A DNA stretch of 64,000 nt from Myxococcota bacterium (GCA_044344255.1 JBIJDH010000002.1:128001-192000), one strand, 5' to 3'. Counted from the first letter of the stretch, positions 1,576 through 40,903 are shown. Program-made: numbers and translations. The notes: generated by a model from the letters alone, not told the origin.

Positions 1576-3402
1576 TCAGTGGACCTGGGTGCCCCGGCCG
1601 CCCTGGTTGGCCTTGCCGGCGATGTGCTGCTGGAAGCGCTGGAGGTAGAGCTGGAGGTCGCCGAGGTTTCTCCGGTCGGCCGACTTCAAGAGGGCCATGC
1701 GCCCGCGCTTCAGCGCGGCCTCCAAGCCCGAGATGTCCTGCTTGTGCAGGTGGCCTTGGTTCTCCCGGAGGAAGCGCTCGAGCGCGACGAGCTGCTGCTC
1801 GATCTGCTCCCGCAGGGCCTTGAGCTCACGGTCGCCTTCATCTTCGGGCGCCGCAGCCGCCGTCGCCACGCCGGCCTTCATTCGCTCGAGCTCTTGCTTG
1901 CTGAGGCCGGTCGGGGAGTCGATCGTGATCTTCTCGGAGACGCCGGTGCGGAGGTCGCGCGCTGAGACGGCGACGATGCCGTTGGCGTCAATGGCGAACT
2001 TGACCTCAATGCGAGGCACGTTGCGGGGCGCCGGCTGAATGTTGCGGAGCTCGAAGTCGCCGAGGCTCACGTTGTCTCGGGCGAGCGTGTTCTCCCCCTG
2101 CAGGACGTGGATCTTCACCGTTCGCTGGTTGTCTACCACGGTGCTGACGAGCTGTGTCTTTTGCGCGGGGATGGTGGTGTTCTTGTCGATGAGGGGCGCA
2201 AAGCGCCCGCCCTGTGTCTCGATGCCGAGGGAGAAGTTGGTCACGTCGAGGAGGGTGACGCTCTTCACGTCGCCCTCGAGGATGCCGGCCTGGATGGCGG
2301 CGCCGATGGCCACCACCTCGTCGGGGTTGAAGCCCTTGTTGAGCGGGCGGCCGAAGAGCTTCTTCACCGCCTCTTGTACGAGGGGGATGCGGCTCGACCC
2401 ACCGACCAGGATGACCTCGTCGATGCGCCCGACCTCGATGCGCGACTCCGTGATGGCCCGTTGGCACTCTGAGATCGTGAGCTCGACCAGCGGGCGGATC
2501 AAGCCTTCGAATTGGCTGCGGGAGAGCGTACACTGGAGGTGCTTTGGCCCGCTGGCGTCGGCGACGAGGAAGGGCAGGTGGATGTCGGTGGAGGTCGAGG
2601 TGGAGAGCTCCAGCTTGGAGCGCTCCGCGGCGTCTCGCATCCGCTGCATCGCCACCCGGTCGCCGCTGATGTCCATGGAGTGCTGCGTCTGAAACTGCTG
2701 GAGCAGCCACTCGACGATCTTGCGATCGAGGTCAGCTCCGCCGAGGGCGTTGTTGCCGCGGGTGGCTCGCACTTCCGCAACATCTCGATCCACATCGAGG
2801 ATCGAGATGTCGAAGGTGCCCCCCCCGAAGTCATAGACCGCGATGGTGCTCGCCTTCTTTCGATCGTGAACGTATGCGAGCGCGGCGGCGGTGGGCTCGT
2901 TGATGATGCGCAAGACGTCCAGGCCGGCGATGGTGCCCGCATCGCGGGTCGCCTGACGTTGACGGTCGGTGAAGTAGGCGGGGACCGTGATGACCGCCTC
3001 GGTGACGGTGGCGCCCAAGGAGTCCTCGGCCGCTTTCTTCATCTTTTGGAGCACCATCGCCGACAGCTCTTGGGGTGAGTATTGACGCTCACCGATCTCG
3101 ACCAGACAATCACCGTTTCGGGCCTCGCTGACGCGGAAGTTCACCATCTCGACGTCGTGGCGGGCCTCCTTGAAGCGCCGGCCCATGAAGCGCTTGATGG
3201 TATAGACCGTCGCGTCCGGGTTGATCAGCATCTGGCGTTTGGCGATGTCCCCCACAAATCGTTCCCCGTCTTTCGCGAAGCCAACGACCGAAGGTGTGAC
3301 CCTCCCGCCTTCTTCGTTGATGATCACGCGCGGCTCACCGCGATCCATGTAGGCGCAGACCGAGTTGGTGGTTCCAAGATCGATGCCGATGATCGTGCCC
3401 AT
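1576..3402 (-). CDS. dnaK: Hsp70/DnaK-family chaperone paralogue
   Basis: GIDLGTTNS, TVPAYF, INEPTAAA, DFGGGTFDIS, linker VTLLDVT, complete SBD-beta and a divergent helical lid. Start placed at ATG 3402 (MGTIIGIDLG). Confidence 0.9.
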   Translation of the reverse strand: MGTIIGIDLGTTNSVCAYMDRGEPRVIINEEGGRVTPSVVGFAKDGERFVGDIAKRQMLINPDATVYTIKRFMGRRFKEARHDVEMVNFRVSEARNGDCLVEIGERQYSPQELSAMVLQKMKKAAEDSLGATVTEAVITVPAYFTDRQRQATRDAGTIAGLDVLRIINEPTAAALAYVHDRKKASTIAVYDFGGGTFDISILDVDRDVAEVRATRGNNALGGADLDRKIVEWLLQQFQTQHSMDISGDRVAMQRMRDAAERSKLELSTSTSTDIHLPFLVADASGPKHLQCTLSRSQFEGLIRPLVELTISECQRAITESRIEVGRIDEVILVGGSSRIPLVQEAVKKLFGRPLNKGFNPDEVVAIGAAIQAGILEGDVKSVTLLDVTNFSLGIETQGGRFAPLIDKNTTIPAQKTQLVSTVVDNQRTVKIHVLQGENTLARDNVSLGDFELRNIQPAPRNVPRIEVKFAIDANGIVAVSARDLRTGVSEKITIDSPTGLSKQELERMKAGVATAAAAPEDEGDRELKALREQIEQQLVALERFLRENQGHLHKQDISGLEAALKRGRMALLKSADRRNLGDLQLYLQRFQQHIAGKANQGGRGTQVH

Positions 3403-19887: not shown

Positions 19888-21417
19888 ATGGGGCGCAGCC
19901 TGTGCGAGAATCGAGGGATGCAGATGCAGCGATGGCGGGCGATCCTCGGGACCCGGGCCCTCCTCGTCGGGGTCACCGTCGGCGTCGCGGGGGCGTGGCG
20001 CATCTGGCTGGCCGGGCACTACGCCGGCTGGGAGGAGAGCGACTACGGCAACCTCGCGATGATCCGCGGTGTGCTCGACGGTGGCTTCCGGCACTACGAC
20101 ATGAACCACATGCCCGGCTACTACGCGCTGGGCGCCGCGGTCCTGGCCGTGGTGGGCGACACCGTGCTGGCGGCGCGGGGCACAGCGGTGGTCATGGGGC
20201 TGCTGGCCTACATCCTGGCCGTGCTCCTGGCCGACCGCCTGGCCGGGCGGCGGGTGGCCTGGCTCACCGGCCTGCTGCTCGCCTTCCAGCCAGAGCTCGC
20301 GCTCTACTCCTCGACCTCTCTGCGGGAGCCCATCTACGCCGGGTGGGTGCTGGCTGCGCTGTTCTCGCTGGTCTCCGAGCGGCTCCTGCTGGCCGGCGTC
20401 TTCGCGGCCCTGGCCTTCTCCGTGCGCATGGACGGTGCCCTCGCCCTCGCCCCAGCGCTGCTCGTCCACGCCCTCGGCCGAGGCGACCGTGTGCGGCGCC
20501 TCCTCTCCGCCTTCCTGCCCCTCTTGTTGGCGATGGGGGCGTGGTCCGCCTACTGCGCGGCGGAGCACGGCACGGCCCTCTTCTGGTCGCACTCGGTGGA
20601 GGTCAACATCGAGACTGGCCTGGGCGCGGAGGCGGTCGATCGTTGGAGCTGGGTGGAGAACGGGCTGTCGGTCGTCTTCGGCTTGGCCGCGGGGCTCCTC
20701 CCGTCGCGGATCGGCTGGGCGGTGTGGGCGGGGGTCTTCTATGCGGTGGTCCACACCCCCTGGCTCCGCCACGATCCGCGCCGCACCTGGGCGATCCAGG
20801 GCATCGTGATGGCGGGGGTCTGGTGCGGCATCGGCTTCGTCGGCCAGCACGCCCCCGACCACAACCTCTATTGGAAGTGGATGTCTCCCTTCGTGCCGCT
20901 GCTGGTGCCGATCGGGCTCAGCGGGCTGCTCGGCGCCCTCGATCGCCTCCGCGCGCGGCTGCCGGCGGCGCCGCCGCTCCTGCTCGGCCTCGCGCTCGCG
21001 CAGGCCCTCGTCGGCTACGGCTTCGAGACGCACCGCCAGTTCTGGCTCTCCGAGGCCCTGTATCGACCGCAAGAGGAGCTCGCGCAGTGGGTCGAGGCGA
21101 ACGTGCCCGAGTCCGTGCCGATGCTCTTTGACGACATCCCCGCCTGCTACATCAACCGGAACCCGCACGAGCGCCGCATGGTGAGCTGGTTCGACGTGCC
21201 GAGCGAGCCCGGCGACCCGGAGTCTTTCGCGGCCTTCCTCCAAGCGGAGCACATCGGCTGGGTGTTGTGGTTCGCCGAGGATTGGACGCAGGCCCCGCGC
21301 TTCGCGCCCTTCCTTCGGGAGGGGGGCACCTGGGAGTCGGGAGGCGTGCGGCTGGTCGAGGTGCGCCGGGAAGACCAATACGGCTGGATCTTCTTCGAGG
21401 CGCAAGGCACCGACTGA
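19888..21417 (+). CDS. Polytopic membrane protein, GT-C (PMT/ArnT-like) glycosyltransferase
   Basis: About 10 or more TM segments, acidic 'WEESD' first loop, 'HMPGYY', 'LREPIY', 'VRMDG'. Confidence 0.6.
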   Translation: MGRSLCENRGMQMQRWRAILGTRALLVGVTVGVAGAWRIWLAGHYAGWEESDYGNLAMIRGVLDGGFRHYDMNHMPGYYALGAAVLAVVGDTVLAARGTAVVMGLLAYILAVLLADRLAGRRVAWLTGLLLAFQPELALYSSTSLREPIYAGWVLAALFSLVSERLLLAGVFAALAFSVRMDGALALAPALLVHALGRGDRVRRLLSAFLPLLLAMGAWSAYCAAEHGTALFWSHSVEVNIETGLGAEAVDRWSWVENGLSVVFGLAAGLLPSRIGWAVWAGVFYAVVHTPWLRHDPRRTWAIQGIVMAGVWCGIGFVGQHAPDHNLYWKWMSPFVPLLVPIGLSGLLGALDRLRARLPAAPPLLLGLALAQALVGYGFETHRQFWLSEALYRPQEELAQWVEANVPESVPMLFDDIPACYINRNPHERRMVSWFDVPSEPGDPESFAAFLQAEHIGWVLWFAEDWTQAPRFAPFLREGGTWESGGVRLVEVRREDQYGWIFFEAQGTD

Positions 21418-21430
21418 GGCGGCCGCGGCC

Positions 21431-21460
21431 AAAAAAAAGACCCCGCCTTTCGGCGGGGCC
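21431..21460 (-). terminator. Intrinsic terminator of the tRNA-Ala gene
   Basis: ccccgcc/ggcgggg stem followed by a T8 run on the minus strand. Confidence 0.9.
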
Positions 21461-21465
21461 CTATC

Positions 21466-21540
21466 TGGTGGAGGAAAGGGGAGTTGAACCCCCGACCCCT
21501 GGAGTGCGATTCCAGTGCTCTCCCACTGAGCTATTCCCCC
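21466..21540 (-). tRNA. tRNA-Ala (anticodon CGC)
   Basis: GGGGGAA/TTCCTCC acceptor stem with G3:U70, anticodon arm CTGGA-ATCGCAC-TCCAG, GGTTCAAC T-loop and encoded CCA. Confidence 0.97.
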
Positions 21541-21566
21541 GATTGGGGCTGCCCCAGACGGGGCTG

Positions 21567-21595
21567 CGTTTATGGTGTGGGGCCTCCGCTGTCAA
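21567..21595 (-). promoter_or_regulatory. Putative sigma70-type promoter for tRNA-Ala
   Basis: Minus strand TTGACA-N17-TAAACG, 26 nt before the tRNA. Confidence 0.65.
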
Positions 21596-21627
21596 GGCGC
21601 CTGACGCCTCTCCGGCGCGCCCATGGC

Positions 21628-22458
21628 TCAGTCGAGGCCGCGCTCCGCGAGGTCTTCTTCGTCGAGGCCGAGGAAGTGCCCGATCTCGTGAAAGAGCGTG
21701 ATGCGCAGCTCCTCGATGATCTGCTCCCGATCGGCCGCCATCCGCTCCAGGTTGTTGCGGAAGAGCGTGATGGTGGGCGGCAGGTTGCTCCAGGGGTTGT
21801 CCATCGACCGATCGACGAGGGAGTGACCGCTGAAGTAGCCGAGGAGGTCTAGGGGCGAGGCCGGCGGGTCATAGCTGCGGAGGATCTCCTCGCGGGGGAG
21901 GTCTTCAAGGAGGATCGCCACGTTGGCCAGCCAGGCCTGCAGATCGGGGTGGAGCGAGCCGACAGCCTCCTCGACGATGTCCTCGACGACCTCATCGCTC
22001 AGCGAGTGTGGCACGAGGAAGCTGTCGGGCTCCAGCCAGCGGGCCCGGGTCAGCGCGCGGCGTCGGCCGGCCTTGTCGCCCTTCCACTCGAGCAGCAGCG
22101 AGCGGGCCCACCATGCTTCGGGGTTCCGCGGGTCCTCCCGGAGGGCGCGGGCGGCCGCACGGGAGGCCTCGTCGAAGCGGAGGAGGTCGAAGCAGGTCGT
22201 CGACAGGGCCGCCCAGGAGGAGGAGTGGCCGGGGTCGGCGAGGGCTGCGCTGCGGTAGGCCTCGGCGGCCTCGCTGTCCCGCGAGAGGGCCCGCAGCGCG
22301 TCGCCGCGCACGAACCAGGCGCCCGGGTGCGTCGAGTTGAAGGTCAGGGCGCGGTCCGCGAAGCGCAGCGCCTCCTCCGGCGCGGCCCGATCGAGGGCCT
22401 CTTCCGCTTGATCCAGCAGCTCTTCAATCGCCACCACGGAGGCACCCACGTTCGTCAC
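21628..22458 (-). CDS. TPR repeats plus minimal zincin (DUF1025-like) metallopeptidase
   Basis: TPR motifs (AWFVRGDAL, PRNPEAWW); C-terminal 'ITLFRNNLER...ITLFHEIGHFLGLDEEDL'. GTGA overlap with the upstream gene. Confidence 0.85.
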   Translation of the reverse strand: MTNVGASVVAIEELLDQAEEALDRAAPEEALRFADRALTFNSTHPGAWFVRGDALRALSRDSEAAEAYRSAALADPGHSSSWAALSTTCFDLLRFDEASRAAARALREDPRNPEAWWARSLLLEWKGDKAGRRRALTRARWLEPDSFLVPHSLSDEVVEDIVEEAVGSLHPDLQAWLANVAILLEDLPREEILRSYDPPASPLDLLGYFSGHSLVDRSMDNPWSNLPPTITLFRNNLERMAADREQIIEELRITLFHEIGHFLGLDEEDLAERGLD

Positions 22459-24347
22459 CCCTTCTTCGGCTCACGTACGACGTAACGAAGGCTGGTCCGG
22501 AAGGTCGCGTAGTCCCCCTGGACCAGCGAGAACTTGATCGCGCGGAGCTCCCGCTTGATGCACCGCTGGACCTCGCCGCCGAGGAGCGTCGCCTTCTCGA
22601 AGTTGACGCCCATGACGTAGCCACGAGGCGACACGTAGGCGGTGAGCTCGGTGGAGGCGACGCTGCCGGGCTCGGCGGTCAGGTGCTGGGCGAAGCAGGC
22701 GTCGAGGCGGTCCGCGCGCCGCTGGACGAGCGCTCGGGCCCCCTCGTCATCGAAGGGGGCGGGCGTCTGCTCGGCGGTGGGCGTGAAGCCCATGGGATCG
22801 GTGAGCTTGAGGACGGGCTCGACGGTCTCGGTGGCGCCGTCCTCGATCGTCACCTCGCGGGTGAAGGGCTCGAAGCCGTCGAGCTCCACCTTGATGGCGA
22901 CGGGCTGGCCGGGGGGGACCCGATGCTCGCGGAGCACGCCCTCGGAGGTCGCGAACGTACCGGCCACGGTGACCTCGCCGGCGGGGGGATCGCAGATCAC
23001 GTTAAGGATCCCGTGCGGAGGGTCCACGACGGGAGGGTCGCCCCACTCGATCCGAGAGGCGACGAAGGCGGAGACGCCGACGATCATCAGCGCCGCGAGG
23101 CCGATCAGCCAGGGCAAGGGGTTGGGCCGCTCGGCCTCGATGGTGATGGCCTTACGCTCCTGGTCATCGGTGGCGACCGTGACCAGCGCTACGGCCTTGT
23201 TGCGGGGCATCTTCCGCGGATCGATGGTGACCTGGATGATCTGCTCGGCCGCGCCGGGATCCAGGCGGGAGGGGTTTACCTCCACCCAGTCGCGGTCGAC
23301 GAAGACCCTCCCGGGCATTCGGCCCGAGCCGCCATTGCGGATGGTGAGCCGGAGCTGGACCGGCGCCTTCCGCGCCTTGATCGAGATGACCTCGGGGCCA
23401 TCGACGTGGAGGCGGGCGGCGCGCTCGGGGCGGGCCGGCTGCGCGGTGCCGCCGAGGTTGAGCGTGCGGCTTGGGTTGGTGAGCGCGTCGGGGACCCGAG
23501 GGGGAGGGGAACCTCGGGAGTGGCCCCCGGCCGTCGAGTGGGTGGTAGGGGCGTCCGAGACGTCCTCGGTGTCCTCCCCGGCCAGCGCGAGCCGGCGCAC
23601 ACGGAGCGGCTCCGGCTCCTTTTTGGGGGCCGCGGGCGGGACGATGCTGGTGCCAAGCACTTCTCGGCGCTTCTCGTCGTACCGGGCGCGGGTGATGGGG
23701 TCCTTCAGGATGTCCCAGGCCTGATCGAGGCGCCCGTAGATCTCGCCGGCTCGGCGGGTGTCTTGGAGCTGTCGGGCCCAATGGTACCGATCTCGGTGCG
23801 CCTGCTCGAGGACCTCGACCGAGGAGTGCGCGGGGACACCGAGTACGGCGTAGTGATCGATGAAGGAGGGGCGACCGGGAGGACCGGGATCCTCTGGGCC
23901 CGGGCTGCGGGCGGCGTGGCTCTCGCTCAACAGCTCCGCCACCTGGGCATCGACCGTCTCAACGTCGAGGCCGAGCTTCGCGCCCTGCTCTCGGATCGCC
24001 TCTTCGCCCTTGGGGGTCAGCACGCCGTCGGCGAGGGTGCCGAGCACGAAGAGGCGGAGCACCTGCAGCTTCCGGTCGCGATCCCGACCCTCGACCTCCG
24101 CTTGGTACTGCGCGCGCTCCTCGATGAGGGCGCGCCGGCAGAGCGTCACGCTCTTGATGACCCAGAGCGCCTCTTGCCGGTACTTGGGGTTGTTCTGCTG
24201 GCCCTGCGCCCAGGCGCGCCGCTGGCGGATCGCAGCCTCGGCCTCGTCGGAGGTCGCCTCCGTGGCGATCCCCAGGTACTCGAACAGCGTTGCCTTGCCG
24301 ACCGTGGCCAGGAATCGGTTGATTTCTTCGAAATCCCGCTGTTCCAT
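22455..24347 (-). CDS. Membrane protein: J-like, TerB-like, J-like, Ig/BACON-like, TM, PEGA, AgmX/PglI(TonB-C)-like
   Basis: 'LFEYLGIATEATSDE', 'LADGVLTPKGEEAIREQGAKLGL', 'DHYAVLGV...AWDILKDPITRARYD', 'LTIRNGGSGRMPG...WVEVNP', TM 'WLIGLAALMIVGVSAFVA', PEGA 'LNVICDPPAGEVTV...ELDGFEPF', 'LDACF...VQRCIKRELRAIKF'. Confidence 0.7.
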   Translation of the reverse strand: MEQRDFEEINRFLATVGKATLFEYLGIATEATSDEAEAAIRQRRAWAQGQQNNPKYRQEALWVIKSVTLCRRALIEERAQYQAEVEGRDRDRKLQVLRLFVLGTLADGVLTPKGEEAIREQGAKLGLDVETVDAQVAELLSESHAARSPGPEDPGPPGRPSFIDHYAVLGVPAHSSVEVLEQAHRDRYHWARQLQDTRRAGEIYGRLDQAWDILKDPITRARYDEKRREVLGTSIVPPAAPKKEPEPLRVRRLALAGEDTEDVSDAPTTHSTAGGHSRGSPPPRVPDALTNPSRTLNLGGTAQPARPERAARLHVDGPEVISIKARKAPVQLRLTIRNGGSGRMPGRVFVDRDWVEVNPSRLDPGAAEQIIQVTIDPRKMPRNKAVALVTVATDDQERKAITIEAERPNPLPWLIGLAALMIVGVSAFVASRIEWGDPPVVDPPHGILNVICDPPAGEVTVAGTFATSEGVLREHRVPPGQPVAIKVELDGFEPFTREVTIEDGATETVEPVLKLTDPMGFTPTAEQTPAPFDDEGARALVQRRADRLDACFAQHLTAEPGSVASTELTAYVSPRGYVMGVNFEKATLLGGEVQRCIKRELRAIKFSLVQGDYATFRTSLRYVVREPKKG

Positions 24348-24534
24348 TTACCGCCAGGGGGGTCCTCGTTGGGGGACCGAGCGCCGTTCGAGAGGAGGAA
24401 GGGGGGGGGCGATGTGCGTCGCCGGGGGGCGTGACGTTTGTACCGCCGAAGGATCTGAGGGTCAATGCCCGGCGACCGGGTGCGGTTGGTCTCGCCGGGG
24501 AGGCGAGGCACGACCGCTCACCCTACACGGTCCT

Positions 24535-26295
24535 TCAATGCACCTGAAACAGCGCCACCGTCTTCTGAGCCTGGCTCATGCGACCGGCGTCGAGGCCGCC
24601 TTTGAGGTCCATCCGGGCGCGCCGTACCCGCCGGGTCTCCACGTCGACGATGTCGATCTCCAGGATTTGGTTGAGCCCGTAGCGGTAGACCACCTCGATC
24701 GGGGTGCCCTTGGGACGCGGGGGGAGGTCGTCCAGCACCACCTCGCCGATCACCTTGACCTCGTCCCGGCGGGTGCCGGTCCCCTCGGTCACCTCGACCC
24801 GAACGGCGGTCATGTTGTCATAGGCATAGGCGAAGCGGCTCTTCTTCTCGCAGGGCACCGCCGTGGCCTCGGGGATCACAACGACCACGCGCTCGTTCAG
24901 GCTGCGGTCGAGGACCACGATGCCCAAGGGGTGACTGGTGACGTCGGTGATCTTGACCGGCGGCAGCCCGATGTAGCCGAAGACCTCACCGGCGGTGCCG
25001 ACGTCGGCCGGGGCCTCAGTCGCCTCCACCTGCGGGAGACGCGCGCCATCGGTGACCCCCTCGGGCGCCGTCGGGCCGGACAGCGGGCCTCGGCTCCCGC
25101 GTGGGAGCTCCCCGGGTCGCGGCGCGGCGCGCAGGGGAGCGAGGGCGGGGTGGTCCTGCTGCGGCTGCAGGGCGACCTCTCGGGCGCGGCGCGCGAGGGC
25201 CTGCCGGTGCGGCACGAGCGCGGGGTGGTTGGCGCGGTGGCGAAGCACGCCCGCGAGCGCCGCGCCCATCGCGACACACTCGTCGGGGTTGACGGTGGTC
25301 GCGGGCGTCTTCCCGGTGAGGGTGGCGAGCATCTCTCGCACCATCGGCATGCGGGTCGATCCTCCGACCAGCAGCACCTCGTCGAGGTCTTCCCACTTCA
25401 TCCCGGCCTTGTCGAGGACGAGGCGGGTGGTATCGGCGCACTGGTCGACGAGGTCGGCGGTCATCCGCTCGAACTCCTCTCGGGTGACGGTGACCACCAT
25501 GCGGTGGCCCCGGAAGTTCACCGGGATCACGGCCTTCGGCTTCGTGGAGAGCGAGATCTTGGCGTGCAGGCAGCGCTCGTACAGCTCCTGGTAGGGCTGT
25601 GGATCGTCGCGGGGGTCGAGGCCGAAGCGGTCCATGAACTGGTCGGCCACCGAATTCAGCAGGCGGTCGTCCCAGTCCTTTCCGCCGAGCTCGGCGTTTC
25701 CGTCGCTGGCGATGGTCTTGAAGGAGATCCCGCGGATCTCCATCAGCGTGACGTCGAAGGTGCCGCCGCCGAGGTCGAAGACCAGGAGGCGGCGATTGCC
25801 CCCCAGGCGCTCGATGCCGTAGGCGATGGCCGCCGTGGTGGGCTCGTTGATGATCGACAGCACGTTGAGGCCGGCGATGGTGCCCGCCTCGGCGGTGGCT
25901 TGGCGCTGCGAAGAGTTGAAGTAGGCGGGGACCGTGATCACCGCGTCCTTGATCGGGAAGCCGAGGGCCTCTTGGGCGTCCTCCTTGAGCTTCTTCAGGA
26001 TGATCGCCGAGAGCTCTTGTGGCGTGTAGCTGCGGCCGAAGAACTCGAGGGTGAAGTCTGGCTCGCCCATCGAGCGCTTGATGAAGCGGACGATGTTGGT
26101 GGGATCGACCACCACCATCTTGACGGCCTCATCACCCACCACGCAAGCGTCGCGGTCGTAGAAGTGGATCACGGAGGGGGTGGTCGGCTGCCCCTCGGAA
26201 TTGGGCACGATCACCGGCTTGCCGAAACGATCCACGATGGCCATCGCGGAGAAGGTCGTACCGAGGTCGATGCCGAGGACGGACTCGTCACTCAT
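24535..26295 (-). CDS. Hsp70-family protein with linker insertion, lacking the helical lid
   Basis: GIDLGTTFS, TVPAYF, EPTTAA, DLGGGTFDVT, LVGGSTRMP, PDECVAMGAA; Pro/Ala/Arg-rich insert before DVTSHPLG. Confidence 0.9.
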   Translation of the reverse strand: MSDESVLGIDLGTTFSAMAIVDRFGKPVIVPNSEGQPTTPSVIHFYDRDACVVGDEAVKMVVVDPTNIVRFIKRSMGEPDFTLEFFGRSYTPQELSAIILKKLKEDAQEALGFPIKDAVITVPAYFNSSQRQATAEAGTIAGLNVLSIINEPTTAAIAYGIERLGGNRRLLVFDLGGGTFDVTLMEIRGISFKTIASDGNAELGGKDWDDRLLNSVADQFMDRFGLDPRDDPQPYQELYERCLHAKISLSTKPKAVIPVNFRGHRMVVTVTREEFERMTADLVDQCADTTRLVLDKAGMKWEDLDEVLLVGGSTRMPMVREMLATLTGKTPATTVNPDECVAMGAALAGVLRHRANHPALVPHRQALARRAREVALQPQQDHPALAPLRAAPRPGELPRGSRGPLSGPTAPEGVTDGARLPQVEATEAPADVGTAGEVFGYIGLPPVKITDVTSHPLGIVVLDRSLNERVVVVIPEATAVPCEKKSRFAYAYDNMTAVRVEVTEGTGTRRDEVKVIGEVVLDDLPPRPKGTPIEVVYRYGLNQILEIDIVDVETRRVRRARMDLKGGLDAGRMSQAQKTVALFQVH

Positions 26296-26303
26296 GGCCA
26301 GCT

Positions 26304-26840
26304 CTACCGGGAGTCGTTGTTGGAGTCGGTCGGACGCTCGTGGCGCAGGAGCACCACCTCTTCCGCCCGGAGCAGTCGCCCGGCGCGGGTGAAGCCGCGC
26401 TTGACCACCTGCTGCACCTTGTAGTCGAGACCGGGGTCGGAGGTGGTGGTCACCTTGACGACCTTCTGGGTCTCGCGATCGAATTCATCCCGCGGGTCGA
26501 GGGGGAGCACGTCCCGGCGGTACAGCAGCTCCTGGAATTCGTCGAGCAGATACTGGAAGCTGTCGGCGATGACCTCGGCGCTCATCTCCTGGTTCACGAG
26601 GCTCTGCTTGAACCAGGAGAGGCTGTCGTGAAACAGCAGCAGATCGAGGAGCAGTGGCTTCTCGGTCTGAAAGATGAAGTCGTCCTTGTACTGTCGGAGC
26701 TCGGTGTAGAGCTGGTCAAAGGCCCGCTGTTGCAGGGCGTCCCGTGTGGACTGTTGATGCACGAAGTCCTTGAGGGTCCCCACCGACTCGGCGAGCCCAT
26801 CGAGGGTGATCTCTTCGTTCCGCGAGTCGGATGTTGCCAC
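26304..26840 (-). CDS. GrpE-like nucleotide exchange factor (atypical)
   Basis: N-terminal coiled coil, 'LLLDLLLFHDSL', 'EFDRETQKVV', 'VQQVVKRGFTRAGRLLRAEEVVL'; lies between two Hsp70 genes. Confidence 0.8.
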   Translation of the reverse strand: MATSDSRNEEITLDGLAESVGTLKDFVHQQSTRDALQQRAFDQLYTELRQYKDDFIFQTEKPLLLDLLLFHDSLSWFKQSLVNQEMSAEVIADSFQYLLDEFQELLYRRDVLPLDPRDEFDRETQKVVKVTTTSDPGLDYKVQQVVKRGFTRAGRLLRAEEVVLLRHERPTDSNNDSR

Positions 26841-26848
26841 TGACCCTC

Positions 26849-28849
26849 CTACCGACCGCTACCGAGCTCGGTGGCCAGGTTGATGAACGTGCCTTCCAAC
26901 TCGATGCTCTCGTTACAGTGGTGGTAGTCGGTCGGCAAGGAGCAGAGCGCCTCGAGGAAGTCGCGCTGCACCTGTCGGCCGACGCCCACGGTGATGACCC
27001 GCCCGCCCAGGCGCTTGATTCGCGTGGCCTCGGCGACGGTGGCGGCGGGGTCGTCGGGGTGGCCGTCGGTGAGCAGCAGGTAGACGCGCTGCACGCCCGC
27101 CTTGCCCTTGAGCGCGTCTCGCGCGGTGGCCAAGCCCTGGTGCATCGGCGTCGAGCCGATCGGCGTGAGGGAGTCGATCGCCGCCTCGATGCGGAGGCGC
27201 TCGTCGGTCAGCCCGCTCTTCAGCCCGCCGGGGAAGGCGACCACCGCCAGGCTCCGCTGCGCCGCGAGCGTGCGCCCGACAAAGGCGCGCGCCGCCTTTC
27301 GGGCCTCGATGATGTTCGTGCCGTACATCGAGCCGGAGCAGTCCATGATCAACGCGAGGTGCATCGGGACGCGGTTCAGCGCGATGTCCTCGAGGCTGGT
27401 CTGGGCGGTGGCGAGCCGGTGGGCGAGGGTCTGGCCGGTGGTGACGTCCATCGCCTCCACCTCCACGATCCCGTTGCTGTTGTACCGGAAGGTGACCGCC
27501 AGCCGAGAGTCTCCCGCGGCGCGGGGGTGGATGCCGTAGAACTCGAAGTGCCCGAGGACGCTGCACTGGAGCGGATCGGTCTCCTCGCCCTGCACCAGCC
27601 AGAGGTCCATCGAGGTCTGGCTGTTGTGGGTGGTGACGTAGTCGTCTCGGGTGCGCTCACAGGGGATGCGGCTGTTTCGGCGGATGATCGGGCTGTTGTG
27701 CAGCGCGCCATCCTTGTAGACCACCATCCCGAGCGAGTGGCTCGTCACGTCGTGGGTGCGCAGGTCGGTGGGGGGCTTTTGGCCGCTCAGCCTCGCCGAC
27801 TCGAGGGCCGCGGTGAGGGCGGCGCCGAGGGCCACGCACTCGTCGGGGTTGATGTCGGTGGAGGGGTCGCGCTGGAAGACATCGGTGATCAGCCGGCGCA
27901 CCATCGGCATGCGCGTCGAGCCGCCGGAGAGGAGGACGGTGTCGACCTCGTCGGGGCGCGACCTCGACTCTTCGAGCACCTCTCGGACCTTGGCCTCGCA
28001 GCGCTGCACGAGGGTCTTCGTGAGGTCCTCGAAGCGCTCCCGGGGGACCTCGAGGCGGAGGATCCGGCCCTGGTAGTCATAGAAGAGGTTGACCTTGGGC
28101 CGGCGGGAGAGCGAGAGCTTGGCGCTCACACACTTCTGTCGGAGGTCATGCGCGGCGGCGGGGTCCTCCAAGGGATCGATGCCGTGCTTCTTCTTGAACT
28201 CGTCTGCCGCGTAGGAGATGAGGGCGTCGTCGAAGTCCTTGCCGCCGAGCATGGAGTCGCCGGCGGTGGCGGACACGGTGATGTCTCGCCCCTCGATGTT
28301 GACGACCGTGACGTCGAAGGTCCCGCCGCCGAGGTCGAAGACCATGCAGCGCATGCTGCGACCGGCGTTCGCGAGTCCGTAGGCGAAGGCGGCGGCGGTG
28401 GGCTCGTTGATGAGCTTGAGGACGCGGAGACCGGCGAGCTCACCCGCCCGCATCGTCGCGCGGCGGTGCTTGTCGGCGAAGTAGGCAGGGACGGTGATGA
28501 CCGCCTCTTCGATCTTCTCACCGAGGCGCAGCTCGGCGTCGTGCTTGAGCTTAGCGAGGATGTAGCTGGAGAGCTGCTCGGGGCTGTATTCCTGGTTCCG
28601 GTACTTGAAGGAGTAGTTGTCGTCGCCCATGTGGCGCTTGACGAACTCCACCACCTGGTTGGGGAAGGCCACGGCCGCCTGCTTGGCGTAGTTTCCGACA
28701 ATGATCTCGTCGCCGTCAAAGAGGACGACGGAGGGGGTGATCCGGTCGCCTTCGGCGTTGTGCAGGATCTCGGGCACGCCGTGCTTGTTCACATAGGCGA
28801 TGGCGGAGAAGGTTGTTCCGAGGTCGATCCCGACTGCGGTCGTTGACAT
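26849..28849 (-). CDS. Hsp70-family protein fused to a C-terminal vWA domain
   Basis: Hsp70 NBD and SBD-beta motifs, then 'LALIMDCSGSM' (DxSxS), 'GSTPM', 'LLLTDGHPDD', 'VITVGVG'. Start ATG 28849. Confidence 0.9.
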   Translation of the reverse strand: MSTTAVGIDLGTTFSAIAYVNKHGVPEILHNAEGDRITPSVVLFDGDEIIVGNYAKQAAVAFPNQVVEFVKRHMGDDNYSFKYRNQEYSPEQLSSYILAKLKHDAELRLGEKIEEAVITVPAYFADKHRRATMRAGELAGLRVLKLINEPTAAAFAYGLANAGRSMRCMVFDLGGGTFDVTVVNIEGRDITVSATAGDSMLGGKDFDDALISYAADEFKKKHGIDPLEDPAAAHDLRQKCVSAKLSLSRRPKVNLFYDYQGRILRLEVPRERFEDLTKTLVQRCEAKVREVLEESRSRPDEVDTVLLSGGSTRMPMVRRLITDVFQRDPSTDINPDECVALGAALTAALESARLSGQKPPTDLRTHDVTSHSLGMVVYKDGALHNSPIIRRNSRIPCERTRDDYVTTHNSQTSMDLWLVQGEETDPLQCSVLGHFEFYGIHPRAAGDSRLAVTFRYNSNGIVEVEAMDVTTGQTLAHRLATAQTSLEDIALNRVPMHLALIMDCSGSMYGTNIIEARKAARAFVGRTLAAQRSLAVVAFPGGLKSGLTDERLRIEAAIDSLTPIGSTPMHQGLATARDALKGKAGVQRVYLLLTDGHPDDPAATVAEATRIKRLGGRVITVGVGRQVQRDFLEALCSLPTDYHHCNESIELEGTFINLATELGSGR

Positions 28850-29043
28850 CTTTGTCCAATCCCGTCCATCGGCGCGGGCGCCGCTCCAGGAGTCGATTCT
28901 GAGCGTCGCTCGCGTGCCAGCGAGCGAGCGGGCGAGGTATAGCCCCACCGGTAGTGCAAAGACCGTACTATACCGTGGCCCTCGCCGCCAGCTCCCGACA
29001 CTCGGAAGCGTTGTTAGCTGCGGTGGGGCACAGCGGAGCAGCC

Positions 29044-29652
29044 ATGAGCAGCCCTCGCCTCATCCTCGCCTCCACGAGCCCTTACCGCCAGGGTCTGCTC
29101 GCGGAGCTGGGCCTCGCCTGCCTCGCGGTCGCCCCGCCCGTCGATGAGGCCTCGGTCACCGCGGATGACCCCGTCGAGCTGGCGCGCGCCCGCGCGCTCG
29201 CGAAGGCCCGCAGCGTGGCCGCGGGGGCTCCGGACGCGCTCGTCATCGGCAGCGACCAGGTCGTTCACCTCCGAAGCGCGCCCTTCGGCAAGCCGCATTC
29301 GGACGAGTCGTGGCTTCAGACGCTCCGCTTGTTCCGGGGTGAGTGGCACACCCTCAGCACCGCCGTGGCGTTGGTGGGCCCGGGCGCGGAAGAGGAGGTC
29401 TTTGTCGAGCACAGCCGGGTGCGACTCCGCGCCGACCTCGAAGACGCCGAGCTGCTCGCCTACGTGCGCCTGGGCGAGGCTCGCGGCTGCGCCGGGGGCT
29501 ACATGGTGGAGCGCCGCGGTGCTTGGCTCATCGAAGACGTCGAGGGCGACTGGCAGAACGTGATCGGCCTGCCGATCTTTCCGTTGGTGACCCGCCTGCG
29601 CGCCCGCGGCTGGCGCCTCGGCCCGACCGGCCCGACCCGGGAGCACCCATGA
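29044..29652 (+). CDS. maf: Maf-family nucleotide pyrophosphatase
   Basis: LILASTSPYR, VDE, IGSDQVV, GKP, CAGGY, NVIGLP. Confidence 0.9.
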   Translation: MSSPRLILASTSPYRQGLLAELGLACLAVAPPVDEASVTADDPVELARARALAKARSVAAGAPDALVIGSDQVVHLRSAPFGKPHSDESWLQTLRLFRGEWHTLSTAVALVGPGAEEEVFVEHSRVRLRADLEDAELLAYVRLGEARGCAGGYMVERRGAWLIEDVEGDWQNVIGLPIFPLVTRLRARGWRLGPTGPTREHP

Positions 29653-39496: not shown

Positions 39497-40903
39497 ATGT
39501 CGACCGCCTACACCCAGCCAGAGATCAGCGAGGGTGCCTCCCTGATCGTCGGGCGCCGCACCTACGTCCTCGACACCAATGTGCTGCTCTACGATCCAAA
39601 CGCGATCAACGTCTTCAAGGAGCATGTGCTGGTCATCCCGATCATCGTGATCGAGGAGATCGACAAGTTCAAGAAGGACCTGAACGAGACGGGCCGAAAC
39701 GCGCGCGCCGTCTCGCGCCGCCTCGATGACCTCCGCGCCGCGGGCAGCCTCTCCACGGGGGTGCCCCTCCCGAACGGCGGCCTCCTCCGCGTCGAGATGC
39801 CGCATGAGGACACGATCCTCCCCGACGGCTTCGGACCCCGCAGCAACGACAACATCATCCTGTCGACGGTGCTCGACCTCTCGAGGCGGGAGGGGCGAGA
39901 CCGGGTCGTCTTTGTCACCCGCGACACCAACATGCGCATCAAGGCCGATGCGCTCGGAATCTCCGTCGAGGACTACGAGCACGCACACATCAGCGTCGAC
40001 GAGAACTACACCGGCGTGATGGAGCGGGTCCTCTCTTCGAGCCGCCTGCAGGAGCTGTACACGAAGACCAGCATCCCCCTCGAAGAGGGAGAGGCCGCTG
40101 AGCTCGGGGTCTTCCCCAACCAGTTCCTCGTCTTGCACGCTCAGGACAACCCGGCTCAGACCGCCCTTGCTCGTTATGATCACCGAAAGGCGAGGATCAA
40201 GCTGGTGGGTCGCCACAAGGAGGGGGTCTGGGGAATCTTCGCGCGAAACAAGGAGCAGCTCTTCGCGTTGGAGCTCCTGCTCGATGACAGCGTCTCGCTG
40301 GTCACCCTCGACGGCATGGCCGGCACCGGCAAGACCTTGCTCGCGATCGCCTGCGGGCTGCGCATGGTGACCGATGAGAGCCGGTACCGGCGCCTCGTGG
40401 TGAGCCGACCGATCTTCCCGATGGGGCGCGATCTCGGCTTCCTCCCCGGGGACATCTCCGAGAAGCTCAACCCCTGGATGAAGCCGATCTACGACAACCT
40501 CGAGCTGCTCACCGGCTCCGCCGAGACCGAGGAGCGGCCGAACAAGCGGAGCGGGCCGCAGCAGCCTCCGGGCTACCAGGCCTTGATGGATCAGGGGATG
40601 ATCGAGGTCGAGCCGCTCACCTACATCCGCGGGCGGTCGATACCTCGCCAGTACCTCGTGGTCGACGAGGCCCAGAATCTCACGCCCCATGAGGTCAAGA
40701 CGGTGATCACCCGCGCGGGGGAGGGCACCAAGATCGTGCTCACCGGCGATCCGTACCAGATCGACAACCCCTACGTGGACGCCATGTCGAACGGCCTGAC
40801 CTACGTGGTGGAGCGCATGAAGCAGAGCGCCGTCGCAGGGCACGTCACCCTTCGGAAGGGGGAGCGCTCCGAGCTCGCCGAGCTCGCGGCGAGGATGCTC
40901 TGA
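39497..40903 (+). CDS. PIN-PhoH (PhoH2/YlaK-like) protein
   Basis: PIN 'YVLDTNVLL'; Walker A GMAGTGKT, RGRS, DEAQN, GDPYQID. Confidence 0.93.
   Translation: MSTAYTQPEISEGASLIVGRRTYVLDTNVLLYDPNAINVFKEHVLVIPIIVIEEIDKFKKDLNETGRNARAVSRRLDDLRAAGSLSTGVPLPNGGLLRVEMPHEDTILPDGFGPRSNDNIILSTVLDLSRREGRDRVVFVTRDTNMRIKADALGISVEDYEHAHISVDENYTGVMERVLSSSRLQELYTKTSIPLEEGEAAELGVFPNQFLVLHAQDNPAQTALARYDHRKARIKLVGRHKEGVWGIFARNKEQLFALELLLDDSVSLVTLDGMAGTGKTLLAIACGLRMVTDESRYRRLVVSRPIFPMGRDLGFLPGDISEKLNPWMKPIYDNLELLTGSAETEERPNKRSGPQQPPGYQALMDQGMIEVEPLTYIRGRSIPRQYLVVDEAQNLTPHEVKTVITRAGEGTKIVLTGDPYQIDNPYVDAMSNGLTYVVERMKQSAVAGHVTLRKGERSELAELAARML

Follow-up and report, generated by a model that had tools for sequence, protein, structure and literature searches.

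We investigated a stretch of 64,000 nucleotides from the genome of a Myxococcota bacterium (GCA_044344255.1, JBIJDH010000002.1:128001–192000; hereafter the window), in which five consecutive, co-oriented open reading frames (ORFs) lie on the minus strand at positions 21628–28849. The host assembly comprises 8.18 Mb in 83 contigs and is 95% complete. Named A to E in their order on that strand, the ORFs encode an Hsp70–vWA fusion (A, 666 residues, 26849–28849; Pfam HSP70 and VWA), a GrpE-like protein (B, 178 residues, 26304–26840; Pfam GrpE), a lidless Hsp70 (C, 586 residues, 24535–26295; Pfam HSP70 in two stretches), a bitopic membrane protein (D, 630 residues, 22455–24347; described from orthologue alignments, AlphaFold models and hydropathy), and a protein with TPR repeats and a mini-zincin domain (E, 21628–22458; Pfam TPR and Zincin_1), the start of which overlaps the stop of D. 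The frame of A is open up to 28948, and the ATG at 28849 is the likely start, giving 666 residues, the same length as the database orthologues. The spacings are 8 nt between A and B, 8 nt between B and C, 187 nt between C and D (24348–24534, minus strand), and a 4-nt GTGA overlap between D and E; our ORF calls thus reproduce exactly the arrangement that an earlier note on this DNA had described. The C–D spacer varies in length between orthologous loci, measuring roughly 2 to 100 nt elsewhere according to the coordinates. GC content at third codon positions is 0.87–0.92 in all five frames, which is of coding type. We consider that the cluster may well encode a private, lineage-specific Hsp70 set whose members act together as a single chaperone machine, anchored to the inner membrane on its cytoplasmic side.

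A and C are Hsp70-family proteins of altered architecture. The Pfam HSP70 match of A (450 bits) stops at profile position 501 of 599 and is accompanied by a VWA match of 42.7 bits, and C matches HSP70 with 412 bits in two stretches that include no lid. Both fall below the cut-off of the DnaK equivalog model NF001413 (648 bits), A scoring 440 bits and C 422 bits. In A, an ATPase domain (approximately residues 1–355) is followed by an altered linker (DLRTHDVTSH), a beta substrate-binding domain, and the vWA domain in place of the helical lid. In C, the ATPase domain is followed by a conserved basic helix, a linker rich in Pro, Ala, and Arg, the beta substrate-binding domain, and a short tail; the length of this linker ranges from almost nothing to about 90 residues across the aligned orthologues. 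The helical lid is therefore absent from both proteins, the beta-domain being followed by the vWA domain in A and by the short tail only in C. The ATPase motifs GIDLGTT, NEPTAA, DLGGGTFD, and GGSTRMP are present in both and are invariant or nearly so in the orthologue alignments, and by these motifs A and C appear to be ATPase-competent. The interdomain linker reads DIRTHDVT in A and VKITDVT in C, at the place where DnaK carries the hydrophobic VLLLDVTP. The vWA domain of A retains the metal ion-dependent adhesion site (MIDAS): its DCSGS motif (residues 503–507; 27329–27343, minus strand) is completed by a Thr (GSTP, 565–569) and an Asp (TDG, 593–597). Among A orthologues, DxSGS was found in 20/20, the Thr in 19/20, and the Asp in 20/20. 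Mean pairwise identity of orthologues was highest for A (0.70, n = 20), followed by C (0.64), B (0.56), E (0.51), and D (0.32).

B matched Pfam GrpE with 37.6 bits (cut-off 25.8) over profile positions 20–162 of 165, and remained far below the NCBIfam GrpE equivalogs (31.7 bits against a cut-off of 266). It is the third of three GrpE-family genes in the host genome, which also contains about 11 Hsp70-family genes and 12 J-domain matches. A canonical grpE–dnaK–dnaJ operon is located on another contig (C59), and the cluster is thus additional to the housekeeping chaperones. In a maximum-likelihood tree of ATPase domains, built from every second row of both alignments and with a bootstrap that had not fully settled, the A clade (support 99/99) and the C clade (100/98) were sisters; together they formed a clade with 100/100 support on a long stem, apart from the eight other Hsp70 paralogues of the genome. 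No HscC model was among the NCBIfam matches of the cluster, and a plasmid-borne HscC shared only 26% identity with the beta-domain of A. The canonical operon elsewhere, the separate clade of A and C, and a gene order kept across one bacterial order (see below) bear out the suggestion of the earlier note that this is a dedicated set and not part of the general chaperones. The same window carries a further DnaK-like Hsp70 paralogue at 1576–3402 (minus strand), also as reported earlier, which has a lid, scores 696 bits, and is distinct from the canonical dnaK.

D joins the chaperone theme to the membrane. AlphaFold models on orthologue alignments reached predicted local distance difference test (pLDDT) values of 92.5 for residues 1–240 and 95.0 for residues 305–630. 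In order, D comprises two J-like domains, a disordered and variable Pro-rich stretch, an Ig-like sandwich, one transmembrane helix, and two domains predicted to be periplasmic. Profile, fold, and Pfam DnaJ all identified the second J-like domain (residues 158–232; 23652–23876, minus strand). It matched solved J domains with a PDB profile E-value of 4.4e-13; its modeled fold aligned to them over 66–69 residues with Z of about 10 and a root-mean-square deviation of 1.2–3, and Foldseek gave target TM-scores up to 0.83. Pfam DnaJ (PF00226) was found in 74/74 D orthologues, with 29.9 bits for the 240-residue fragment of the window protein (cut-off 27.8) and 26.3 bits for the whole protein. By sequence and predicted structure, this domain has the J-domain fold. 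The first J-like domain (residues 1–86; 24090–24347, minus strand) was recognized from its helix pattern in the model and from its hhalign match to the second over helices I–II (probability 93%, E = 2.9e-7); residues 1–86 were not matched to J domains in the fold search with the model of residues 1–240, and its assignment to the J fold is weaker. Between the two lies a three-helix module in the model (residues 87–150; 23898–24089, minus strand), for which the fold search returned generic helical matches only (Z 5–7).

Neither J-like domain carries the His-Pro-Asp (HPD) motif at its expected place. At the loop between helices II and III of the second domain, HPD was found in 0/74 orthologues, the window protein having HWA and the consensus being RWA; four HPD tripeptides occur elsewhere in the N-terminal 240 residues, at unrelated positions. 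The corresponding place in the first domain is taken by a near-invariant motif, (R/K)RxWAQ(G/A)QQxNPK(Y/F), which is the most constrained site of D, and F12, R44, Q48, Q51, N53, K55, and A60 are invariant in 74 D sequences. The HPD motif is generally held to be necessary for stimulating the Hsp70 ATPase. Its Asp contacts Arg167 of DnaK, and a change of Arg167 suppresses a change of that Asp; the numbering used here is assumed and not computed. At the aligned position, C orthologues have Ser (19/20) or Thr (1/20), A orthologues have Lys (17/21), Ser (2), Gln (1), or Arg (1), and the DnaK-like paralogue at 1576–3402 has Arg. D has lost the Asp and C the Arg, a possible co-variation that would be consistent with an interface built anew.

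The remainder of D comprises a juxtamembrane domain, the membrane helix, and the predicted periplasmic part. The Ig-like beta-sandwich of PapD/MSP/ASH type (residues 309–410; 23118–23423, minus strand), predicted to be cytoplasmic, aligned to PapD-like, MSP, and ASH domains with VIA-align Z of 10–12.6 (model residues 1–105), and Foldseek agreed. A transmembrane helix follows (residues 411–432; 23052–23117, minus strand), supported by Kyte–Doolittle hydropathy and by a helix in the model; the 19-residue mean reaches 2.25 at residue 411, and A, B, C, and E have no window above 1.6. D is thus predicted to be a single-pass membrane protein, and we infer from the families on each side of the helix that its N-terminus is cytoplasmic. 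Beyond the helix, a beta-sandwich of PEGA-like type (residues 446–509; 22821–23012, minus strand; all-beta in the model) precedes an alpha/beta domain of the AgmX/PglI C-terminal type (residues 533–618; 22494–22751, minus strand; NF033768), both predicted to be periplasmic. NF033768 scored 36.9–38.5 bits in the window protein, under its cut-off of 40, and matched 20/58 orthologues at E ≤ 0.001. The fold matches listed for residues 305–630 fell on the Ig-like domain, the periplasmic folds (PEGA, TonB-C-like) not being reached by structure searches. The periplasmic part was long in 57/66 complete D orthologues and short or absent in 9/66.

The five proteins carry the domains named in the earlier note, with the exception of TerB. 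Pfam TerB matched 1/74 D orthologues (E = 0.011), the TerB-like chain 2ou3 reached a Z of only 6.1, and Atlas rows for TerB fell under the bar; the TerB domain and the link to Ter loci are therefore not upheld. Pfam PEGA (PF08308), also named there, was undetected in the window protein; it matched 28/58 D orthologues at E ≤ 0.01 (best 1.9e-6), and the model has a beta-sandwich at the corresponding place. Of the description of D as trans-envelope, the single membrane helix and predicted periplasmic domains remain, and envelope spanning is unsupported. As a separate observation, a stand-alone paralogue of the N-terminal J-like region of D, with 41% identity and no Hsp70 gene nearby, is found in another genome (L117; G039:C47, 8001–9152) just downstream of imuB- and dnaE2-like genes, and similar short matches occur in G034:C14, G011:C14, and G001:C13.

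E combines three to four TPR repeats (approximately residues 14–150) with a mini-zincin domain (residues 159–274). It matched Pfam Zincin_1 with 83 bits (cut-off 22.4) in addition to TPR families, and PDB 3E11, annotated as a predicted zincin-like metalloprotease, with E = 1.1e-8. The sequence HEIGHFLGLDE at residues 257–267 (21658–21690, minus strand) conforms to the Asp-zincin motif HEXXHXXGXXD, as given in the part of PMC3890501 that deals with it. HExxH was present in 19/19 orthologues, of which 16 have Asp as the third ligand, two have Ser, and one has Asn. E has neither a signal peptide nor a transmembrane segment and is probably a cytoplasmic TPR mini-zincin and, given its catalytic motif, a putative peptidase. 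Proteins of the DUF1025/Zincin_1 family are described in passages of PMC3890501 as intracellular, putative peptidases that are not yet experimentally characterized, and the TPR+DUF1025 architecture is listed in the legend of its Figure 5. E thus shares the HEXXHXXGXXD motif and the TPR fusion with these mini-zincins (Acel_2062, PDB 3E11), but sits in an Hsp70 cluster, whereas the DUF1025 passages of PMC3890501 report no partner, peptidase activity, or link to an Hsp70 gene.

We investigated the distribution of the cluster among 300 further genomes of the phylum, using the C-terminal 300 residues of A (beta-domain and vWA) as the query and counting matches at E ≤ 1e-20. We found an A-type match in 42 of the 43 genomes of the window's own order, spread over six families. 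The other orders of its class, with 14 genomes sampled, gave no match, and the rest of the phylum, with 243, gave a single weak one (31% identity). Among 20 loci fetched from the order, 17 had all five genes in the same order, two had A–D without E, and one had D–E only; maf was located beside A in 18 of the 20. Additionally, a pattern scan with D motifs, taking one genome per species, yielded 106 relatives, of which 80 were kept. All 80 loci carry labels of metagenome-assembled genomes, mostly of Myxococcota or "Deltaproteobacteria" type, and several are plainly wrong ("uncultured Enterobacterales"). Among these 80, A, B, and C were upstream of D in 53/55 species loci with at least 5 kb of upstream sequence. 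C was adjacent to D in 62/69 loci with at least 1.9 kb upstream, and E followed D directly in 57/64 loci with at least 1.2 kb downstream, the frames mostly overlapping or abutting. DNA of the host recurs in lake and river metagenomes, with at least half of the sampled words found in 18 DNA runs from 14 studies, one of which is possibly the source of this DNA.

The pattern is that of a core feature passed down vertically within one order, and not of a mobile defence island: the cluster occupies a fixed place between maf and housekeeping genes and is near-universal in that order, and its Hsp70–vWA gene was not found in the sampled genomes from other orders of the class. On the A side lie maf (divergent, 28954–29652), a gene of the uracil-DNA glycosylase family, and an S1 protein gene; on the E side lie genes for a PMT_2-type glycosyltransferase and an alpha/beta hydrolase; and farther out in the window are pyrimidine genes, greA, queA, tgt, yajC–secDF, and HU. 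Plasmid records contained no fused beta-domain–vWA protein like A (0 records covering at least 80% of the query). Some lineages have lost the zincin gene, and 9/66 orthologues of D have a short periplasmic part; accordingly, the core of the cluster consists of the Hsp70–vWA, the GrpE-like protein, the second Hsp70, and the cytoplasmic J-like anchor.

These results bear on the defence role suggested by the earlier note. On such a reading, the cluster would be an anti-phage or conflict system, of a type built on chaperones that has been predicted in multicellular bacteria, and the peptidase would be its effector. The nearest described gene combination is found in the GAP1-N2 systems with an HSP70/GrpE theme (Kaur, Burroughs, Iyer and Aravind 2020, PMC7159879), which are known chiefly from actinobacteria and firmicutes. 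As far as the relevant sections of that paper go, these systems resemble the present cluster in their parts (a private HSP70 with GrpE, another HSP70 that is truncated, a DnaJ- or TPR-fused partner, and PEGA and vWA domains), in lying close to the membrane, and in favoring bacteria that live multicellularly; the recurrence of these parts in GTPase-based conflict systems is an argument for a defence role. The occurrence of the HSP70+VWA architecture in several phyla is a further lead in that direction: Atlas clusters in which all members carry both families come from Planctomycetota, Bacillota, Actinomycetota, and Myxococcota, the similarity scores being leads only. However, the present cluster has no zinc-ribbon GTPase and no FNIII-repeat protein, its second Hsp70 keeps the beta-domain, and it is core and syntenic and not patchy. 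With Pfam applied to the five proteins and 30 flanking products, the only GTPase was LepA, 10 kb away, in libraries that include no GAP1 model; genes for a GTPase, GAP1, or an FNIII protein were seen neither within the cluster nor next to it. Furthermore, the flanking genes are less conserved than A and C, a variable effector is lacking, and the supposed effector, E, is the dispensable part. PADLOC-DB 2.0 gave chance-level matches only (E = 0.0031 for PDC-M61B; E = 8.4e-5 for the TPR stretch against PrimPol). With the fixed position between housekeeping genes throughout the order, the presence of the gene in 42/43 genomes, and no plasmid copy of the fused substrate-binding domain and vWA, we regard a defence role as very improbable.

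Hsp70–vWA genes were also observed in other contexts. In another family of the phylum, a 4.4-kb contig (L037; G074:C356:1–4419) carries an Hsp70 gene followed in tandem by an Hsp70–vWA gene, with 34–35% identity to C and A; the gene order is the reverse of that in the window, and the D profile found no D-like gene in that genome. In addition, pieces of a second Hsp70–vWA gene, 83–88% identical to A, are present in the same assembly as the window (L038, G000:C68:1–3220; and G000:C12:125–637). The copy on C68 has a different C-terminal end, followed by a convergent P-loop ORF (GPSGSGKS) instead of the GrpE-like gene. Lying on tiny contigs, this second Hsp70–vWA gene may come from a co-binned relative or may be a true paralogue in another context.

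In a freshwater metatranscriptome library (X19), near-identical contigs covered 24 of the 30 bins into which the region was divided. Contigs bridged the A/B junction (26669–27099) and the B/C junction (26051–26463), one extended from C into 125 nt of the C–D spacer, and one covered the start of A together with upstream sequence. These contigs weakly support a polycistronic A–B–C transcript and its expression in nature.

Some Myxococcota Hsp70s have been assigned roles outside the heat-shock response, and the cluster may be compared with them. StkA and SglK of Myxococcus xanthus are extra Hsp70s that are not induced by heat shock and act in exopolysaccharide production, social motility, and development, according to the passages on them in PMC4319316 and PMC8265645. 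By analogy, the cluster could be a regulator or assembly factor for gliding motility or exopolysaccharide, with the AgmX/GltG-type tail of D inserted in a motility or envelope complex; the C-terminal domain of D matches the AgmX/PglI tail model and, weakly, GltG, and such a role would be compatible with a tethered machine, as a specific choice of client. The stk locus, as far as those passages describe it, contains SCP2-like and PhaE-like genes, without GrpE, a second Hsp70, a J-like anchor, or a zincin. Since A-type matches were not found in the other sampled classes of the phylum, A-type proteins cannot be counted as orthologues of StkA or SglK. The genes next to the cluster include none for motility or exopolysaccharide, 9/66 orthologues have a short tail or none, and the tail match is under the model cut-off. 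We consider this role quite unlikely.

The reading of the cluster as one membrane-tethered chaperone machine, to which we give about even confidence, can be outlined as follows. The two J-like domains of D would serve as docking sites at the membrane for A, C, or both, possibly with one domain per Hsp70, by an interface that replaces the HPD–Arg contact. B would exchange nucleotide and thereby reset the ATPases of A and C, and binding of a client or partner would fall to the beta-domains of both Hsp70s and to the metal site in the vWA domain of A. In genomes that have it, E might cut the client or else D, and the PEGA and AgmX-type domains in the periplasm might place or regulate the machine at the cell wall. 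Membrane or envelope proteins are candidate clients. Because E and the periplasmic domains are each lost in some lineages, they are probably accessory. The relay proposed in the earlier note, in which the periplasmic part senses and the peptidase ends the chain, is weakened by the short or absent periplasmic part in 9/66 orthologues and by genomes that keep A–D and in which the peptidase gene was not found (3 of 5 in family f7, see below).

Compared with the canonical DnaK–DnaJ–GrpE system, the Hsp70s of the cluster score under the DnaK equivalog and are lidless, and the J-like domains have no HPD. The nearest described design is that of HscC with DjlB and DjlC in Escherichia coli, a specialized Hsp70 encoded beside membrane-anchored J proteins, for which a role at the plasma membrane has been proposed in the section of PMC8215388 devoted to it. 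The two share a non-DnaK Hsp70 that is encoded beside its own membrane-anchored J-type partner and is additional to DnaK. However, the HscC/DjlB/DjlC set has one Hsp70, HPD-bearing J domains, and tail anchors, with no vWA and no peptidase, whereas the cluster has two lidless Hsp70s (one fused to vWA), its own GrpE-like protein, HPD in 0/74 orthologues, and a TPR-zincin gene. In contrast to the tail anchor of DjlC, D is predicted to be bitopic, its helix at 411–432 of 630 residues being followed by about 200 predicted periplasmic residues.

The mitochondrial import motor combines mtHsp70, the GrpE protein Mge1, the J protein Pam18, and Pam16, a regulatory J-like protein without HPD. The likeness lies in an Hsp70 and a GrpE-type factor held at a membrane by J-type domains, one of them HPD-less, and is a functional analogy only; in the cluster, both J-like domains are HPD-less, there are two Hsp70s, and there is no known translocon. 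The fold search with D returned a chain of Tim14–Tim16 (2guz), with a weak Z of 5.8. It is conceivable, though we hold it only tentatively, that the cluster encodes a counterpart of such a membrane-tethered Hsp70 motor, in which bitopic D would hold the lidless A and C, A with its vWA domain as a metal clamp, and the private GrpE at the inner membrane, and which would pull, remodel, or extract envelope-anchored proteins and pass them to the TPR mini-zincin. If this were true, the cluster would be a lineage-defining machine for envelope quality control or assembly, with an interface between J-like domain and Hsp70 that is not based on HPD.

Several observations weigh against a single machine, and some of them favor a different account, in which two independent neighbors happen to adjoin: A–B–C would be extra cytosolic chaperones, D–E a separate membrane protein and peptidase, and their adjacency historical. 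The genome already contains about 11 Hsp70-family genes. D–E occur without neighboring A–B–C at four loci (L078, L091, L113, and L115), and in one genus (g25) A–B–C remain beside maf while D–E are on another contig, all five genes being retained. The 187-nt C–D spacer is the only long gap. No X19 contig fully bridged C–D, nor did any bridge D–E, several bins being uncovered, which proves nothing; moreover, the RNA data are contigs, from a type of library in which DNA may be present. Synteny extends equally to the flanking genes, and a gene order conserved within one order, with conserved flanks, can mean inheritance alone and is no proof of joint function. E was not found in 3 of the 5 genomes of family f7 (94, 86, and 94% complete), which keep A–D, and was beside the cluster in the other two. 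In small genomes, the same syntenic place is occupied by reduced or divergent versions: G032 has only A and B, and the D-like genes of G030 and G147 are short. Finally, the HPD-less J-like domains may not act on an Hsp70 at all. These points stand against others: the only recognizable domains in the cytoplasmic half of D are J-like, a fold with known Hsp70 partners, there is no other J-type gene in the cluster, A–B–C adjoin D in 62/69 informative loci, both halves are retained where the cluster is split, and the HPD loss in D parallels the Arg loss in C at the presumed J-contact position. Taken together, we think it unlikely that the two halves are unrelated.

A single tethered machine would add an unusual design to the cases in which a general chaperone has been turned into a specialized tool, as in HscA/HscB and HscC/DjlC. 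Its elements would be two lidless sister Hsp70s, a vWA domain in the place of the lid, a private GrpE, and an anchor with two J-like domains in which HPD is replaced by a near-invariant motif. If the J-like domains bind A or C, the cluster would be a natural test of J–Hsp70 coupling without HPD, and a tandem HPD-less J-like anchor next to an Hsp70–vWA and lidless Hsp70 pair would surprise chaperone specialists. Near-universal in one Myxococcota order that is common in fresh water, the cluster is a candidate lineage-defining trait. We found no paper on this gene set or on Hsp70–vWA by name, in a search that did not extend to the supplements of the eLife 2020 paper, which may list related neighborhoods.

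Beyond the five genes, scans of the surrounding sequence returned few features. No sigma-70-type site was found in the promoter scan of the region, and the Rfam scan returned nothing besides a tRNA-Ala(CGC) gene, located 87 nt downstream of E (21466–21540, minus strand; Rfam tRNA 64.9 bits, also called by ARAGORN). Of 21 other loci, 15 have this tRNA gene next to the cluster, facing either way; we treat it as a conserved neighbor and not as a component of the system, and its varying orientation relative to the cluster suggests repeated local inversion. Just past the tRNA, the terminator scan found a hairpin with an 11-bp stem followed by a T run (21437–21462, minus strand), which is the only terminator-like site on the minus strand in 21300–29300, the site count being no higher than in shuffles. 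Convergent to the cluster is the gene for the PMT_2-type (GT-C) membrane glycosyltransferase (19888–21417, plus strand), a neighbor retained by the cluster in 12 of the 20 fetched loci; it did not travel with D–E in the genus with the split cluster. Elsewhere in the window, a PIN–PhoH fusion gene lies among housekeeping genes at 39497–40903 (plus strand).

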